DNA of 44,150 nt from a virus (IMGVR_UViG_3300045988_030968:1-44150); one strand, 5' to 3'; positions 14,391 to 36,170 are shown, counted from the first letter of the stretch. Made by a program: numbers and translations. Notes: generated by a model not told the origin, from the sequence alone.

Positions 14391-14603
14391 TTACTTAACG
14401 CCAGCAATCCACGCACGCTCTGAAGTGTAGAAACGACACTTACTTAACGACTCGATTGGCATCTTAATAATCCGTGTTGTCCCTGAAAAATAATCAGGTT
14501 TGCATATTTCTGCGTAGAAACCGCTGTCAGTAATTTCTGATGCAAACTTAAACCGGTATTTAACTTTACCGTTTTCAAAGTAACAACCCATACGTCCAAT
14601 CAT
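14391..14603 (-). CDS. Hypothetical protein (70 aa)
   Basis: ORF with ATG start, overlaps upstream gene stop. Confidence 0.5.
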   Translation of the reverse strand: MIGRMGCYFENGKVKYRFKFASEITDSGFYAEICKPDYFSGTTRIIKMPIESLSKCRFYTSERAWIAGVK

Positions 14604-14782
14604 TTCACGTTCTCCTTAATCCACGCTTCAACTTTATTACGGTCAAATGTACCAGGTAAACGGCGACCCATAACCTTAATACAACAGTCAGGGAATTTAC
14701 CACTGCGTAACCAGTTATTAATTGTCTGACGTGTCACCCCGATACGCTCGGCTACTTCATTCTGCGTCATGTAATGTTGCAT
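14600..14782 (-). CDS. Small HTH DNA-binding protein (AlpA/excisionase-like fold)
   Basis: Start set at ATG 14782 with AGGAG upstream; MTQNEVAERIGVTRQTINNWLRSGKFP. Confidence 0.55.
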   Translation of the reverse strand: MQHYMTQNEVAERIGVTRQTINNWLRSGKFPDCCIKVMGRRLPGTFDRNKVEAWIKENVK

Positions 14783-15186: not shown

Positions 15187-15215
15187 TTGCACACCCCAAC
15201 ATAATAGGATACTAT
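15187..15215 (+). promoter_or_regulatory. Conserved promoter, copy D1 (TTGCAC-17-TACTAT with AATAG-N4-CTATT operator)
   Basis: 33-bp element repeated at 16599, 27238(-) and 36138(-); about 35 nt upstream of ATG 15250. Confidence 0.5.
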
Positions 15216-15249
15216 TCACTTATTGAAACAAGACAGAGGGGTGAGGGTT

Positions 15250-16409: not shown

Positions 16410-16619
16410 ATGATTACTAGAGAACAGGCTGAACGACTAATCGCGTTAATCGACACGATGGTTGATGTAAAAACCGATTCAGCAACGGCAACAGAGGAAC
16501 TCGCTACTTGGTCGCTTGAAGAAAGAGAAGCAGAAGCGGAGCGCGAGTTACTGGCGTTCATCGACTCTATCACACACACACACACAAATAAAATTTACTT
16601 GCACGCTAAGATAGAATAG
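16410..16619 (+). CDS. Hypothetical small protein
   Basis: 69 aa; contains (CA)8 tract near 3' end. Confidence 0.5.
   Translation: MITREQAERLIALIDTMVDVKTDSATATEELATWSLEEREAEAERELLAFIDSITHTHTNKIYLHAKIE
16571..16586. repeat. (CA)8 dinucleotide microsatellite
   Basis: CACACACACACACACA encoding THTHT at the C-terminus of ORF 16410..16619. Confidence 0.9.
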
Positions 16620-25327: not shown

Positions 25328-25363
25328 GTTCACATATAGCCCCGAAAGGGGCTTTCTTATAGT

Positions 25364-26440
25364 ATGCTATTAACTTTAGCACCACAGGGTTTATCTATGA
25401 GCTTACTTACATCCCTAATCAGCCACCAGATATGGCTGCAACGCACCGCATCCGGTGAAGTGAAAGACCTCGCGCCGTTTCTTCAGGAAATGAGGGGCGA
25501 AATAAAACGGCAGGTGCTGTTATTCGGCGACGACGGGCGAAGCACTGCGCGTCTGAATAAACTGTTACGCGACCTTGAAGAAGCACTAACCGGGCTTACA
25601 GGTGACTGGCAAGCAAAACTGGCAGAAGACCTCAAGGAACTGGCAGCGTATGAGGCCGAGTGGAACACAAAGACACTGGCAGCCAACGTTAACGCGGAAT
25701 TTGTTACGCCTACCGCTGAACAGGTGTGGGCCGCCGCCGAGTTTCAACCCTTATCATTAAGCGACAAGCCGGTCGATTTCACTAAGCTGATGTCTGGCTG
25801 GGGTGAAACGGAGGTCGCGCGCCTGGTAACTGGCGTTAAGATGGGTTTCGTTCAAGGCCAAACCACACGGCAGATTGTTAAGAATGTCGTAGGCGCTGGC
25901 GGACTGGCCGACATCTCTGAGCGCAACGCCGCTACGGTAATCCGCACCGCGCTATCTCACGTGTCCAACGAAGCCCGCAACGAGACGTACCGCCAGAACG
26001 ACGACATCATCGAGAAATATGAATGGGTGTCTACGCTTGATAGCCGTACCAGCACGATTTGCAGAGCCAGAGACGGAATGACATGGGAAATTGGTAAAGG
26101 GCCGATGCCCCCAGCCCATCCGAATTGTCGGTCGTGCACGGCTCCGGTAATCAGTTCCGAGTTCGACTTCCTCGATAAAGGCGCAAAACGCGCGGCTAAG
26201 GGCGCGAACGGCGGTACTCAGGTAAGCGCGGACACCACTTACTACGAGTTCCTGAAACAACAACCGGCATGGTTTCAGGATGAAGCACTCGGTCCTGTTC
26301 GCGGTAAGATTTTCCGTAACAGCGGTATATCGCCGGAAGAGTTTCGCGTAATATCTGTAGATGGTTTCGGGAATCCGCTCACGCTTAAGCAGATGGCGGA
26401 ACTCGATAAACGTGTTGCTGATTATCTGAAAGGGGATTAA
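25364..26440 (+). CDS. Head morphogenesis protein (Mu F / SPP1 gp7-like minor head protein)
   Basis: Conserved C-terminal region STLDSRTSTICRARDGMTW...HPNCRSC. Confidence 0.7.
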   Translation: MLLTLAPQGLSMSLLTSLISHQIWLQRTASGEVKDLAPFLQEMRGEIKRQVLLFGDDGRSTARLNKLLRDLEEALTGLTGDWQAKLAEDLKELAAYEAEWNTKTLAANVNAEFVTPTAEQVWAAAEFQPLSLSDKPVDFTKLMSGWGETEVARLVTGVKMGFVQGQTTRQIVKNVVGAGGLADISERNAATVIRTALSHVSNEARNETYRQNDDIIEKYEWVSTLDSRTSTICRARDGMTWEIGKGPMPPAHPNCRSCTAPVISSEFDFLDKGAKRAAKGANGGTQVSADTTYYEFLKQQPAWFQDEALGPVRGKIFRNSGISPEEFRVISVDGFGNPLTLKQMAELDKRVADYLKGD

Positions 26441-26901
26441 TGATGGGCTTTTTCAAAGTAACTGACGTACCGTCGCGTCGCGTAGTCCAGTACGCCCGCG
26501 TGTCTGGCTCTGGTGAGAATGTGGTGTTTATTGAAGATGAAAGTGTACTAGGTACACCGGTAGACGATATGCCGTTTGCGGATAAGACCGGTATTGCGCT
26601 ACCAGCGGCGGGCATGCTTTATGAGATTCCGTATCTGGCTGATGCTGGCGACGTGTATTTCTCTGAGCAACCGCAGGACACCGAACTGACAGACGGCAGT
26701 GCAACTCTCACTGTCGAAGTTAAAGCTGGTAAAGCACCATATGCGCTGACCTGGTACAAAGATGGTAAGGAAGTGGTCAACGCCCCAGAAGAGGCTTTGT
26801 CTCTGACGGTTAATGCGGTAGGGGAATACTTCGTTAAAGTTACCGATGCCGGTGGTGTGGAGGCTGTCAGCAAAGCGGCGAAGGTCACTAAGCCAGAATG
26901 A
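26440..26901 (+). CDS. Ig-like domain protein
   Basis: C-terminal TLTVEVKAGKAPYALTWYKDGKEV; paralogous motif in 29983..30324. Confidence 0.5.
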   Translation: MMGFFKVTDVPSRRVVQYARVSGSGENVVFIEDESVLGTPVDDMPFADKTGIALPAAGMLYEIPYLADAGDVYFSEQPQDTELTDGSATLTVEVKAGKAPYALTWYKDGKEVVNAPEEALSLTVNAVGEYFVKVTDAGGVEAVSKAAKVTKPE

Positions 26902-26904
26902 TAA

Positions 26905-26933
26905 AAGGCCCCTTCCGGGGCCTTAGTTTTATT
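26905..26933. terminator. Bidirectional terminator
   Basis: AAGGCCCC-TTCC-GGGGCCTT with T-runs on both strands; overlaps stop of minus-strand gene. Confidence 0.6.
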
Positions 26934-27213
26934 GCTTTCCTAATGCTTTCTTGATCGCGCTGTTTGCCAGATTTAATGGATGGTCTTCATGGCAATCCTC
27001 GGGAGATACCGCGCAAACATCCTCAACGTAATCGCGAAGCTGGCGAAGTGCTTCAAGTAACTCTGGTGCAGAGGAAATAAGTTTTGTGTTAGCCAATTTT
27101 ACTGAGTCCTTTTCCCTCATACTCATTACCTCCGCCACATAAACATCACCCGCCCAGATAGCAGTTCCGCGATTAACCCATGCACCGTCTGTACCTTTAA
27201 ATTCGTGTGTCAT
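26929..27213 (-). CDS. Reverse-oriented accessory (moron) gene, hypothetical 94-aa protein
   Basis: ATG 27213 with AGGAG upstream; own promoter (27238-27270) and terminator; opposite to flanking structural genes. Confidence 0.6.
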   Translation of the reverse strand: MTHEFKGTDGAWVNRGTAIWAGDVYVAEVMSMREKDSVKLANTKLISSAPELLEALRQLRDYVEDVCAVSPEDCHEDHPLNLANSAIKKALGKQ

Positions 27214-27237
27214 TTTTTCATCTCCTGTTCAAGTTAA

Positions 27238-27270
27238 CTGAATAGTACCCTATTATGTTGGGGTGTGCAA
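27238..27270 (-). promoter_or_regulatory. Conserved promoter, copy E (minus-strand TTGCAC-17-TACTAT)
   Basis: Reverse complement matches D1 at about 30 of 33 positions. Confidence 0.5.
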
Positions 27271-27336
27271 ACTATTTGTTTATGTATTCCAGTTATTCCA
27301 CTCAATTGTAAATGTTGGAATAAACTATTCGAATAG

Positions 27337-27365
27337 TTGACTTTTCACTGAAAATATGGTAAGCT
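27337..27365 (+). promoter_or_regulatory. Conserved promoter core, copy 2 (TTGACT-17-TAAGCT with TGg)
   Basis: Near-identical to 14890-14918. Confidence 0.45.
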
Positions 27366-27573
27366 CCACCTGAGCTTGTGAAGTATGAACAAGCGACCGC
27401 GGCGCGGGCAGGTAACGGAGCGGGACGTAAGTCCTGAGTGTAGTTACGCTGACGCGTTCGGAAGGGCCATAGGCTATTGCTTGTGTAAAAAGTAACTGGT
27501 TTACTGAGATTACGCCGTTTCTGTGTTTAAATGATAAGGACTAACGCCCCGCTTTATGGCGGGGCTTTACTTA
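27366..27573 (+). ncRNA. Candidate conserved leader, copy 2, ending in terminator-like hairpin
   Basis: ORF-free; 5' part conserved with copy 1; GCCCCGC-TTTATG-GCGGGGC plus TTTACTTAT at 27545-27573, just before the spanin RBS. Confidence 0.25.
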
Positions 27574-27589
27574 TCGAGAAAGGAGAAAC

Positions 27590-27976
27590 ATGAATCTTAA
27601 AGCAACTGTCGTAGCGGGAGCATGTTTCATCATCCTGGCTTACGCACACGGCATCTACCAGTATCGCAGCGGCTGGAACGAAGGCCGGGCGAATCTCGTT
27701 TCCCAGCAACAGCAGAAAGCACAGGCGGAGTTAGCGAAGAAAACACAACGGCAGCAGCAGGACGAATCAAAGGCCGCAGCCGCTGACAACGAAGGTAAGA
27801 CGAAATCAGAGGTGATTACCCGTGAAGTCGTTAAGTACATTAAAACGCCTGGTCGCAGCGTGTGCACTTTCGACGATGCTCGCGTCCTGCTCAAGTCCCG
27901 CTCCGTCGCAAACGCCAATTCCATCCCCGGATATGACAATGATGCAGCCGCCGTGCAAACTGGCGCTACCAAGTAG
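27590..27976 (+). CDS. Rz-like inner-membrane spanin (i-spanin)
   Basis: N-terminal TM VVAGACFIILAYAHGIY then Gln/Ala-rich coiled coil; AAGGAG RBS. Confidence 0.65.
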   Translation: MNLKATVVAGACFIILAYAHGIYQYRSGWNEGRANLVSQQQQKAQAELAKKTQRQQQDESKAAAADNEGKTKSEVITREVVKYIKTPGRSVCTFDDARVLLKSRSVANANSIPGYDNDAAAVQTGATK

Positions 27977-28085
27977 CGACGCGGACGAGGATTTAACTAT
28001 CGACGTCCAGAACGCCGAATGTGTACGGCAACTGAGGTTGAAAGTGTTCATGTTGCAGGATTACGTGAGGAATATTCTGGAATAG
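27822..28085 (+). CDS. Rz1-like outer-membrane lipoprotein spanin (o-spanin), overlapping Rz in another frame
   Basis: Lipobox LSTMLASC; Pro-rich mature region; starts inside Rz and extends beyond it. Confidence 0.55.
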   Translation: MKSLSTLKRLVAACALSTMLASCSSPAPSQTPIPSPDMTMMQPPCKLALPSSDADEDLTIDVQNAECVRQLRLKVFMLQDYVRNILE

Positions 28086-28871: not shown

Positions 28872-29921
28872 ATGGCAATTACCACTATCGGCGATATCGT
28901 AACTGGCAACATCCCGGTCCTGGCGTCTTATATGACCGAGGACCCGGTAGAAAAAACCGCGTTCTTCCAGTCTGGTATTCTGACCCCTACTCCGTACGCT
29001 GCCGAGATTGCTCGTGGCCCGTCCAACATCGCTAATATTCCTTTCTGGAAAGCGATTGATACTTCTATTGAGCCGAACTACTCGAACGACGTGTATCAGG
29101 ACATCGCTACCCCGCGTAACGTGCAGACCGGCGAGATGATGGCGCGCGTTGCGTACCTGAACGAAGGTTTTGGTCAGGCGGACCTGACTGTCGAACTGAC
29201 CAGCCAGAATCCGCTGCAATCCGTGGCGTCCCGTCTGGATAACTTCTGGCAACGTCAGGCACAACGCCGTCTGATTGCCACCGCGCTCGGTCTGTACAAC
29301 GACAACGTAGCTGCTACCGATGCTTACCACGAGCAGAACGACATGGTTATCGACGTGTCCGCCACTCTTGGCTTCGATTCCGGCGCATTCATTGACGCTA
29401 CCCAGACTATGGGTGATGCTCTGATGGGTAACAGCGGTGAAGTGCTGGGCGCTATCGCGATGCACAGCTTTGTTTATGCGCAGGCGCGTAAGCAGCAGCT
29501 TATCGACTACATCCGTGATGCTGACAACAACACCATGTTCGCCACCTACCAGGGCTACCGTGTGATTGTTGACGACAGCATGACCGTAGTTGGTACTGGC
29601 GGTGGTCGTAAGTTCATCTCCATCATCTTCGGAAACGGCGCTATCGGTTACGGTGAAGGCAATCCGTCCAACCCGCTGGAATACGAACGCGAAGCGTCTC
29701 GTGGTAACGGCGGCGGCGTTGAAACTCTGTGGACTCGTAAGACCTGGCTGTTGCATCCGTTGGGCTACAGCTTCACCAGCGCGGTAACCACCGGCAACGG
29801 CACCGAGACTGTCGCACGTTCTGCTTCCTGGCAGGACCTGGCGAACGCCTCCAACTGGAACCGTGTGGTTGAGCGTAAGCACGTACCGATTGCCTTCCTG
29901 GTAACTGGTGTCGGGGCTTAA
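28872..29921 (+). CDS. Major capsid protein
   Basis: 349 aa after scaffold; strongly biased codon usage; followed by terminator. Confidence 0.7.
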   Translation: MAITTIGDIVTGNIPVLASYMTEDPVEKTAFFQSGILTPTPYAAEIARGPSNIANIPFWKAIDTSIEPNYSNDVYQDIATPRNVQTGEMMARVAYLNEGFGQADLTVELTSQNPLQSVASRLDNFWQRQAQRRLIATALGLYNDNVAATDAYHEQNDMVIDVSATLGFDSGAFIDATQTMGDALMGNSGEVLGAIAMHSFVYAQARKQQLIDYIRDADNNTMFATYQGYRVIVDDSMTVVGTGGGRKFISIIFGNGAIGYGEGNPSNPLEYEREASRGNGGGVETLWTRKTWLLHPLGYSFTSAVTTGNGTETVARSASWQDLANASNWNRVVERKHVPIAFLVTGVGA

Positions 29922-34500: not shown

Positions 34501-34525
34501 AAGGCCCCGAAAGGGGCCTTTTCTT
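34501..34525. terminator. Bidirectional terminator
   Basis: AAGGCCCC-GAAA-GGGGCCTT with T-runs on both strands. Confidence 0.65.
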
Positions 34526-34754
34526 ACTCATCAATATTGCTTCGATACTCCCGTAACTTCTCCAGACTTTCAATTGCTTCTGCTAAGTCGGTCCCGGTGT
34601 CCTTGTGGCCGCGCAAGCCCATACACAATAGCTTCTTCAATGCGTGCTGTAGCGCCGGGTCGCGGATATCGAAGGCGCGTAGCACGTCATAAACGTCTAC
34701 TGCCATAGTGCTGCCGTGAGTGTTTGTCATTGTGCGGTTATATTTTGAAGTCAT
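34524..34754 (-). CDS. Hypothetical small protein, last gene of reverse-oriented cassette
   Basis: 76 aa; ATG overlaps upstream stop (ATGA). Confidence 0.5.
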   Translation of the reverse strand: MTSKYNRTMTNTHGSTMAVDVYDVLRAFDIRDPALQHALKKLLCMGLRGHKDTGTDLAEAIESLEKLREYRSNIDE

Positions 34755-35881
34755 CCCAGCATCTCCGGTGAAATAGTTAAACGTGCGACCTCGCCGTATT
34801 CGGCGCTATAAGTAATTACGTTTGCACTGCGGCCTGACATCCATCCGCCGCGGGAGGCGTAGGCGTCTTTAGCCGCTAAGGTGCGGTGTTGCTCAACAAT
34901 CATGTTACGGCTTTCTACAATCTTCTGGTGATGCAGGTGGCCTACGTGAGCGTAGCTGTACTCGCTTTCCCCGAATGCTTTTCTGAACTTAGATATCATA
35001 ATTGGTTCGACCACCTCAAACCGACATTTATGACCATGTGTGAAGAACAGCGTCGTTTTGCCGTGGCGCACCATCTTGTACACATCCGGCGACGTATCAA
35101 CGAACACACGCGGCTCGTTGTCATACAGCGTACTGAACATCTCCGCTAACCAAATCATACCCGATTCGTCGTGGTTTCCTTGCACGATAAGCAAGCGAAC
35201 ATTTTTATGCTTAACCAGAGCCATATCAACAACACGGCGCACCATACGAATCATGTAGCGCACCAGTTTCTGATAGCGGGTGTCCGCATCAAGAATATGA
35301 CCACTCGCTGGCGTAACGGCATCAAGACTATCGAAGTGCGCGAGGTCGCCAAGCAGGTTAATAACCCCAGTTCCCGCGTCCGGTGCTTTCTGAAATGCAG
35401 CATCGAACCAGCGAGAAAACAGGTCTTCAGCAATCTTCATATCCCAGTCGTCGCCGCTTTCATCGGCCCAGGCCAGCATACCGAGATGGAAATCAGATAC
35501 CGTGTAAAGATTGAGTAGTTTATCGTCGCGTTTAGCCCGAATGGCTTTAACAGGAGCAACGGGGGTAATCTCCGACTTCATCCCTTCGATTACGGCTTTC
35601 ATCAACTCTACCTGACGTTCGGCATCGGTGTCGGTCTTAACCCATTGCAGCTTAGTGTTGCCGAACTCGTCCACAAGTGACGACGTGCCTTTAATCTTGT
35701 AGCCGTCTGGTACAAGGTGACTAACGTCGCGCCCGTGGCCCACGCCTTTCTTTGCCAGCTTCGCTTTACGGATACGAATAACGCGGTCTGAGATGCCGTA
35801 TTTACGGGCGATATCGATATTCTTCATCCCGGCGTTCAATTCTTCCTGTAACTGTTCGTCGGTTATTTTCTTCTGGGCCAT
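34751..35881 (-). CDS. HTH-containing calcineurin-like metallophosphoesterase
   Basis: 376 aa; N-terminal HTH KNIDIARKYGISDRVIRIRKAKL; phosphoesterase motifs DFH, GDLAHFD, GNHDE, THGH, GHLHH. Confidence 0.6.
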   Translation of the reverse strand: MAQKKITDEQLQEELNAGMKNIDIARKYGISDRVIRIRKAKLAKKGVGHGRDVSHLVPDGYKIKGTSSLVDEFGNTKLQWVKTDTDAERQVELMKAVIEGMKSEITPVAPVKAIRAKRDDKLLNLYTVSDFHLGMLAWADESGDDWDMKIAEDLFSRWFDAAFQKAPDAGTGVINLLGDLAHFDSLDAVTPASGHILDADTRYQKLVRYMIRMVRRVVDMALVKHKNVRLLIVQGNHDESGMIWLAEMFSTLYDNEPRVFVDTSPDVYKMVRHGKTTLFFTHGHKCRFEVVEPIMISKFRKAFGESEYSYAHVGHLHHQKIVESRNMIVEQHRTLAAKDAYASRGGWMSGRSANVITYSAEYGEVARLTISPEMLG

Positions 35882-35919
35882 GCTTACTTCCTCGTGTTTA
35901 GGATTTGTCCTATGCTAGC

Positions 35920-36111
35920 TCACTTCTCGTTAACATTCGAGTTGCACGCCCAGATTAAAATAAAGACCCACGGCAGCAGAACCCAACCAAGAAACAGATT
36001 AGCCGTGAATATCGCCAACTTCGCTTTATGGTTGCGGAAATACGCAACCAGGAAAGGCGCGAAATAAGCGAGAAGTGCAAACAGAATTAAGGAAACTGGT
36101 AAACTGGACAT
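35920..36111 (-). CDS. Superinfection immunity protein (T4 Imm-like small membrane protein)
   Basis: Start at ATG 36111 after AAGGGG; LILFALLAYFAPFLVAYFRNHKAKLAIFTANLFLGWVLLPWVFILIW matches Imm-family pattern. Confidence 0.6.
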   Translation of the reverse strand: MSSLPVSLILFALLAYFAPFLVAYFRNHKAKLAIFTANLFLGWVLLPWVFILIWACNSNVNEK

Positions 36112-36137
36112 TTTAAACCCCTTCATTGTTGGTGTAA

Positions 36138-36170
36138 GTGAATAGTACCCTATTATATTGGGGTGTGCAA
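36138..36170 (-). promoter_or_regulatory. Conserved promoter, copy F (minus-strand TTGCAC-17-TACTAT)
   Basis: Differs from copy E at 2 of 33 positions. Confidence 0.5.

Follow-up and report, generated by a model that had tools for sequence, protein, structure and literature searches.

Within a 44,150-nt stretch of viral DNA (IMGVR_UViG_3300045988_030968:1-44150, in the following termed the window), a single small gene, ORF94, is oriented in reverse between plus-strand genes for head morphogenesis and for lysis and virion structure. This arrangement raises the question of what kind of gene ORF94 is, how it came to reside at this place, and what its product might do. An initial annotation had proposed an accessory gene that is expressed on the early schedule. 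When 1.8 kb around ORF94 were compared with phage records, 339 of them matched, the best being from Kagunavirus and Jerseyvirus (Guernseyvirinae) with 92-93% identity; by this similarity the window is the genome of a Kagunavirus-like phage. The phage is probably virulent, because no integrase is noted in the annotation of its close relative Bas70. The gene order is Mu-F, Hoc-like, ORF94 (reverse), an intergenic stretch, and the spanins (Table 1). The probable start of the Mu-F gene, as judged from the alignment, is 25397 (MSLLTSLI...), and not the first ATG at 25364. The surroundings had been described as an otherwise uniformly plus-strand block, which turned out to be incorrect: a second minus-strand cluster with the same promoter is located among the tail genes. 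This second cluster is kept in Bas70.

Table 1. Features of the ORF94 locus and of related elements in the window
Feature	Position	Strand	Details
HTH protein gene	14600-14782	-	leftward neighbor of the 15187(+) promoter copy
Sister promoter copy	15187..15218	+	heads rightward small-gene cluster, divergent control region
Portal/Mu-F gap	25328-25396		empty second cassette site, small hairpin AGCCCCGAAAGGGGCT
Mu-F-type head morphogenesis gene	25364/25397-26440		PF04233
Hoc-like decoration gene	26440-26901		PHROG 3945
Whole cassette (terminator, ORF, leader, promoter)	26901..27284	-	insertion relative to empty-site relatives
Two-way intrinsic terminator hairpin	26905..26924	both	AAGGCCCC-TTCC-GGGGCCTT, T-rich tails on both strands
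ORF94 coding sequence	26929..27213	-	ATG start, 94 aa, PF27050 / PHROG 1273 member
Shine-Dalgarno motif AGGAG	27222-27226	-	8 nt upstream of the ORF94 ATG
Predicted ORF94 promoter	27242..27270	-	-35 TTGCAC 27265-27270, 17-nt spacer, -10 TACTAT 27242-27247
Intergenic region	between ORF94 and spanin pair		377 bases
Perfect 16-bp palindrome	27323-27338		AACTATTCGAATAGTT, in the intergenic region
Promoter-like TTGACT	27337-27342		17-nt spacer, TAAGCT 27360-27365, preceded by TG, abuts palindrome
Strong terminator	27546-27565		just before spanin, scaffold, and capsid genes
Spanin pair	27590-27976, 27822-28085		PHROGs 2536, 5672
Second reverse cluster	~34524-36170	-	inside tail genes, 36170(-) promoter copy at its head
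76-aa protein	34524-34754	-	in second reverse cluster, no assigned family
376-aa protein	34751-35881	-	second in cluster, metallophosphoesterase matches just below Pfam cut-offs
Imm_superinfect membrane-type protein	35920-36111	-	first gene of cluster, PF14373, E=2.5e-12
Sister promoter copy	36139..36170	-	heads second reverse cluster among tail genes

The 94-aa minus-strand ORF was confirmed in the ORF list. For ORF94 and four close copies that stem from other phages and from contigs of metagenomes, the dN/dS values were between 0.10 and 0.25 in all ten pairs, and the differences of the four copies from ORF94 were mainly synonymous. On the basis of these dN/dS values, ORF94 is a real gene under purifying selection. 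Its product has a mass of 10.4 kDa and a pI of 5.3, and is predicted to be soluble and mildly acidic. The base composition of ORF94 is foreign to its surroundings, with a GC content of 45.6% and a GC3 of 40%, compared to 53-54% and 49-65%, respectively, in the flanking genes. The GC content of the whole cassette is 44.0%, versus 53% in the flanks.

Next, the expression signals were considered. The independent signals that had been proposed, namely a promoter, a ribosome binding site, and a terminator, were all recovered at the sequence level. The good ribosome binding site could be read directly from the sequence as an AGGAG 8 nt before the ATG. The claimed copy of a conserved TTGCAC-type promoter also stood up, as the window contains three matches to the promoter 32-mer TTGCACACCCCAACATAATAGGGTACTATTCA with no more than one mismatch (15187+, 27270-, 36170-), compared to none in 100 shuffles. 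A further copy, at 16599+, differs in its spacer, and the three promoter positions are retained in the relative Bas70. A generic sigma-70 scan did not list the ORF94 promoter, because TTGCAC is identical to TTGACA at only three of six positions. It is the repetition and the position of the element, and not its closeness to the consensus, that point to a promoter, and the transcript is predicted to start near 27235. Upstream of the copy at 16599, a (CA)8 run is present at about 16571-16586 (+), inside an ORF (16410-16619) in which it encodes THTHT; this tract could be prone to slippage.

A bidirectional terminator overlapping the stop codon of ORF94 had also been proposed. The two-way hairpin was verified: it has an 8-bp stem, yielded a terminator score on both strands, and has free energies of -16.9 and -16.3 kcal/mol (z = -3.1 and -2.6). 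The overlap, in contrast, was not found, as the stop codon (26929-26931) lies 4 nt off the stem, within the T-rich tail of the plus-strand terminator.

The edges of the cassette were mapped by alignment with EF2-1, which has an empty site, and with Bas70 and the Salmonella phage S100, which carry other genes at this site, in the following called cargo. The left edge is just past the stop codon of the Hoc-like gene and the right edge is at 27284/27285, so that the limits (about 26901-27284) are close to those of the initial annotation. The megablast breakpoints fell into three classes, at query positions 10, 18-37, and 81, the last of which corresponds to window position 27285. In relatives, the homology breaks off precisely at the start codon, within the first bases of the leader, or at 27285. 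The adjacent intergenic DNA is common to about 180 records with 94-97% identity. The only GenBank phage with ORF94 at the Hoc/spanin site is the Kagunavirus LM02P1. In EF2-1, K1G, K1ind, and others the site is empty, and the Hoc-like gene joins the region from 27285; a different small hairpin follows the Hoc-like stop codon in these phages, and then the sequence of window position 27285 onward.

At occupied sites, a variable reverse gene is bracketed by a common hairpin, AAAAGGCCCCnTTnnGGGGCCTTAGTTTTAT, and a common segment of about 70 nt (27214-27284) comprising promoter, leader, and ribosome binding site. Up to the start codon, unrelated cargo genes of relatives are preceded by a near-identical leader with a few substitutions, and the same type of hairpin flanks the other cargo genes at this site. 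Four types of alternative cargo were noted: a DNA methylase (Dam-type, 242 aa, PF01555) in the Salmonella Jerseyvirus S100 and its relatives, a protein annotated as beta-clamp-like in fEg-Eco19 (173 aa), with a beta-clamp-like protein also in fFiEco02, a RusA-like protein at the Hoc/spanin site of relatives, and a 67-aa protein without assigned function in Bas70. All of these share with ORF94 the orientation, the type of terminator, and a near-identical promoter, leader, and ribosome binding site as far as the ATG. Nevertheless, the encoded proteins are unrelated to the ORF94 product, and only the methylase has a clear family. The methylase could have an anti-restriction function. In the GenBank record of fEg-Eco19, the annotators labeled the cargo of this site "possible moron gene product". 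With the promoter-leader and the hairpin as shared flanks, entire reading frames can be exchanged with the start codon as the precise junction. The proposed accessory status of the cassette is strongly supported: many close relatives have an empty site, others have unrelated genes in it, four have the cassette at another site, and the GC content is atypical.

Several additional observations were made near the accessory sites. Genes for HNH homing endonucleases are present in the loci of fEg-Eco19 (L001, 3220-3726) and of swi2 (L014, 211-702). The HNH gene of fEg-Eco19 directly follows the i-spanin gene, and none is present at that place in the window. The beta-clamp-like cargo gene is located at 1980-2501 in the fEg-Eco19 locus. 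In genomes of the STGO-35-1-type Salmonella phages, a gene that was judged to be beta-clamp-like by eye from its N-terminus recurs three to four genes downstream of PF27050 members (L019, 4461-5039). Neither of the two proteins matched a Pfam family.

The other genomic locations of ORF94 were informative about its mobility. Close copies were found by tblastn in five related phages (84-93% identity), and among about 340 related genomes, only five have the gene. Its place in K-02 and EF2-1 is between the portal gene and the Mu-F gene, again in reverse orientation, and in two unannotated Kagunaviruses the same location was assigned by position. The K-02 and EF2-1 copies have a near-identical promoter and leader, TTGCAGACACCAATATAATAGGGTACTATTCAGTTAACTTAAACAGGAG, plus a terminator hairpin. 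The hairpins of the portal/Mu-F copies are comparable to that at 26905-26924 and differ from it in sequence. In the window, this second site is empty and contains a small hairpin of the same kind as that in the empty Hoc/spanin site of EF2-1. Genes of the Swiduovirus swi2 and the Cedarrivervirus Sf11 are highly similar to ORF94 in DNA, where alignable, while their promoters and flanks are unrelated to those of the ORF94 cassette. These comparisons show that the cassette is horizontally mobile between sites and phage genera.

The moron concept was reportedly introduced by Juhala, Hendrix, and colleagues around the year 2000. Classical morons are prophage genes that are expressed while the prophage is repressed. 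The ORF94 cassette shares with the morons of lambdoid phages that it is an extra gene between conserved genes and missing in close relatives, that it has its own promoter and terminator, and that its composition is atypical. Both kinds of signals were found at the sequence level, and both are also present at the second site. Judged by these features, the cassette appears to fit the classical moron definition. In contrast to a classical moron, its flanks are shared between different cargo genes and the flanked unit occurs at two sites, and therefore the cassette behaves as an exchangeable system. It provides a clean, sharply bounded example of the carriage of optional genes by virulent enterobacterial siphophages, with flanks that allow the unit to move between sites and genera, although it is an element of a known kind, and the present evidence overturns nothing known.

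No family had been recognized for the ORF94 product initially. In fact, it belongs to PF27050 (Phage_P22_Y8K6) and to PHROG 1273, with an E-value of 2.2e-16 over residues 2-94 for the latter. The precomputed assignment PF27050.1 is attached to the identical database protein (P0001) as well as to each of the 120 homologues listed. When the six-frame ORFs of P22 were searched with a profile of ORF94 homologues, orf78 was the only match (E=1.8e-7, record positions 29076-29312). The matched part starts at about profile position 41 and contains the APELLEAL helix and the AIxKALG end; the N-terminal motif was not aligned. ORF94 and PF27050 have three motifs in common, the N-terminal FKGTxGxW, the central ANxxLIxxAPELLEAL, and the C-terminal AIxKALG, the ORF94 versions of which, within 94 aa, are FKGTDGAW, ANTKLISSAPELLEAL, and AIKKALG. 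Also the usual size of about 90-120 aa and the stand-alone organization without fused domains are the same. Two differences were observed. The close subfamily of ORF94 has an additional Cys/His-rich stretch, VCAVSxxDCHxDHPL, which distant PF27050 members lack, and ORF94 forms a single-gene cassette, whereas most PF27050 members lie inside early operons. The CxxxxxxCHxxH stretch could be a metal-binding site, which was rejected as a family feature because the stretch is not conserved in the wider family.

The family is very large: a threshold of E<=0.001 yielded 19,389 representative clusters, and the stricter one of E<=1e-10 yielded 159. Among the best 150 representatives, nearly all are single-domain proteins of 71-130 aa. 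The longer members were considered as possible informative fusions and contained no Pfam domain, and a PHROG scan placed all of 63 distant members in PHROG 1273, which is of unknown function. A homology and structure search had been suggested as a check. It yielded the family, but neither sequence nor fold yielded a function. ORF94 had no match in a Pfam set that lacks the PF27050 model, in NCBIfam, or in PADLOC, no enzyme family was matched in Pfam and NCBIfam, and no sequence or profile match was obtained in the PDB. The fold comparison with the first structural model gave nothing above noise, and no solved or predicted structure of known function was alike. Similarity in sequence or fold to known anti-restriction and anti-defence families (Ocr, ArdA, Ral, Abc2, and others) was not detected either. 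This makes it less likely that ORF94 encodes a known inhibitor, and does not affect the possibility that it acts as an inhibitor. A literature search for PF27050, phrog_1273, the APELLEAL motif, and P22 orf78 found nothing useful. The family is thus already known but uncharacterized, and membership by itself explains nothing mechanistic. However, if a partner of one PF27050 member were found, thousands of phage genes could be annotated.

The comparison of family members indicated a modular architecture. Conservation throughout the family is limited to three short segments, FKGTxGxW, the helix-kink-helix ANxxLIxxAPELLEAL, and AIxKALG. The middle part (ORF94 residues 13-41) occurs in 26 unrelated types among 95 close homologues. 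For pairs with C-terminal modules that are at least 90% identical, the middle modules have an identity of less than 35% in 59% of the cases. The reverse swap, the same middle with a different C-terminus, was found in one protein (P0025), and the swi2/Sf11 group contains both of the middle types seen in Kagunavirus. Within a single type, the middle module has been subject to purifying selection, and synonymous sites of the conserved C-terminal half have diverged to a normal extent (dS 0.26-0.50). The module pattern thus arises by recombination at the conserved stretches. Because of the purifying selection within one type, diversity is generated by recombination and not by fast point mutation, which weakens an arms-race reading.

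Two other explanations for this pattern were discarded. A target of a diversity-generating retroelement does not fit, because the middle modules differ in length, cannot be aligned, and are under purifying selection within a type. A constraint at the nucleotide level in the C-terminal half, i.e. an embedded RNA or DNA element, is not compatible with the normal dS. The AlphaFold2 model of the ORF94 product (pLDDT 80) contains a beta-meander at residues 12-28 and helices at residues 36-47, 49-66, and 79-90. A second AlphaFold2 model, of a variant with a different middle module (pLDDT 79), has the same plan. In both models, an unstructured conserved N-terminal peptide is followed by a small beta-meander and three helices.

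The genomic context of other family members bears on the time of expression. In P22, orf78 has 78 codons and is flanked by ral and gene 17 within the PL (early-left) operon, and in mEp213 a family member is located just after N. In lambdoid phages, family members are found in N-dependent early-left operons, and in a P22-like phage a member follows two DNA methylase genes. In swi2, Sf11, and IME207, the member is at or near the head of a reverse gene island among structural genes. Early expression of ORF94 is plausible, as the sister promoters head presumed early clusters and the family is found in the company of early-operon genes. In a coarse RNA-seq time course of a Kagunavirus with other cargo, only four genes were classed as early (PMC12645636).

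Accessory genes from variable regions of enterobacterial phages, about 200 in total, were screened in wild E. coli by Silas et al. (bioRxiv 10.1101/2023.04.06.535777). Like ORF94, these are variable, small genes without assigned function between conserved flanks. Kagunavirus and Guernseyvirinae are not mentioned in the main text of that study. However, its Suppl. File 3 contains UDP0110 (QBZ71465.1, Salmonella phage Akira) as an accessory gene picked by algorithm, which bears the same three family motifs and gave a tblastn match to ORF94 with 35% identity. No lethal or counter-defence phenotype is listed there for UDP0110, which amounts to a weak negative for a distant relative.

On this basis, we propose that the cassette is a self-contained mobile moron in a polymorphic intergenic site. 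Host RNA polymerase would read its promoter, which is of a class shared with presumed early genes, and produce a short mRNA. This mRNA would end at the two-way hairpin, at which the oncoming transcript of the head genes would be terminated as well. The soluble product would act early by binding a partner, and not by enzymatic activity. The swappable beta module would confer specificity, and the conserved parts would serve as a scaffold or contact a common partner. The likeliest role would be in early host takeover or in counter-defence. Even with its firmer parts counted in, we regard this reading as a whole as tentative. The lack of a reported phenotype for UDP0110 and the only moderate match of the promoter to sigma-70 weakly oppose it.

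One alternative is that ORF94 encodes an early protein for exclusion among phages, which would block superinfecting or co-resident phages instead of host immunity. The sister promoter at 36170(-) heads a gene of the Imm_superinfect family, P22 orf78 has gene 17 as its direct neighbor and sieB nearby, both of them exclusion-related according to the record annotation, and swappable specificity modules would suit diverse rival phages. However, among the known exclusion proteins of such a size, membrane proteins predominate. No membrane segment was found in the ORF94 product, and its maximum 19-residue hydropathy of 0.57 is well below that of a membrane helix. It thus lacks the transmembrane character of Imm-like superinfection immunity proteins, in contrast to the PF14373 protein encoded at 35920-36111(-). 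In addition, PADLOC gave no match, and members of the family abound in both virulent and temperate phages. We therefore consider exclusion unlikely.

Equally, the product might be an accessory of recombination or replication, e.g. a modulator of a host nuclease or of a phage annealing protein. In 45 of 67 IMG/VR loci, the family member lies within a same-strand operon, and ParB-HTH, Gp157, Rad52/22, RecT, and the lambda N peptide are recurrent neighbors; a Kil-like match of a neighbor was weak and below the cutoff. In swi2 and Sf11, the stop codon of the member overlaps the start of a ParB-like gene, which is followed by RusA, and genes for RusA-like and beta-clamp-like proteins are alternative cargo at the same Kagunavirus site. 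Yet no neighbor is constant, the commonest one was found in 11 of the 67 loci, and the early-operon neighbors do not point to a single partner. ORF94 itself stands alone and far from the replication genes, and a hypervariable middle part would not be expected for a partner of conserved recombination proteins. For these reasons, a role in recombination or replication is doubtful.

A transcription regulator, which would bind RNA polymerase or act like an anti-sigma factor and aid the switch from early to late expression, is very unlikely. The ORF94 product is small, acidic, and helical, the genes are promoter-proximal in several phages, and ORF94 is arranged back to back with a region that precedes the late head genes, is very conserved, and looks regulatory. 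Nonetheless, the gene is dispensable, as many close relatives lack it or have unrelated cargo, and its presence in only 5 of about 340 related genomes makes a core role improbable. Furthermore, a fold likeness to AsiA-like or Gp2-like proteins was not found above noise.

That the gene matters little, either as a selfish or neutral passenger or because its promoter and terminator modulate read-through into the late operon, would suit the rarity of the cassette among relatives, the replacement of another terminator of empty-site phages by its hairpin, and its convergent transcription toward the head operon, but is highly improbable in view of the purifying selection on the protein, the conservation of the family over thousands of sequence clusters, the strong two-way terminator that would limit antisense transcription into the head genes, and a site that works with or without the cassette. 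The idea that the cassette promoter controls the head operon through antisense transcription was likewise set aside as unlikely, because the two-way terminator is strong and the site can be empty.

The preferred reading of a mobile early binder can be extended to the whole family. PF27050 proteins might be combinatorial effectors, in which one conserved scaffold, made up of the N-terminal peptide and the three-helix module, presents any of dozens of interchangeable beta modules, each directed at a target of host immunity or of a rival phage, and which are delivered in Guernseyvirinae by a plug-and-play cassette at no fewer than two sites. We offer this extension as speculation that is probably wrong in at least some of its parts. 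If true, PF27050 would be a large unrecognized class of modular counter-defence or decoy proteins.

Lastly, the intergenic region on the right side of the cassette had conspicuous features of its own. The region from 27285 to 27589 (+) is more conserved than the flanking genes, with 94-97% identity in about 180 Escherichia and Salmonella phages, and positions from about 27340 to 27575 are nearly invariant among four aligned phages. A 36-aa ORF annotated in relatives (window positions 27385-27495) belonged to no family, and Rfam revealed no known RNA families over 26800-27700. About 200 nt of the region form a structured sequence with a minimum free energy of -75.9 kcal/mol (z = -2.65). Together with the palindrome, the promoter-like element, and the strong terminator (Table 1), this layout recalls the late promoter, the 6S leader, and tR' of lambda, and the region could mediate antitermination or leader control or encode a small RNA.
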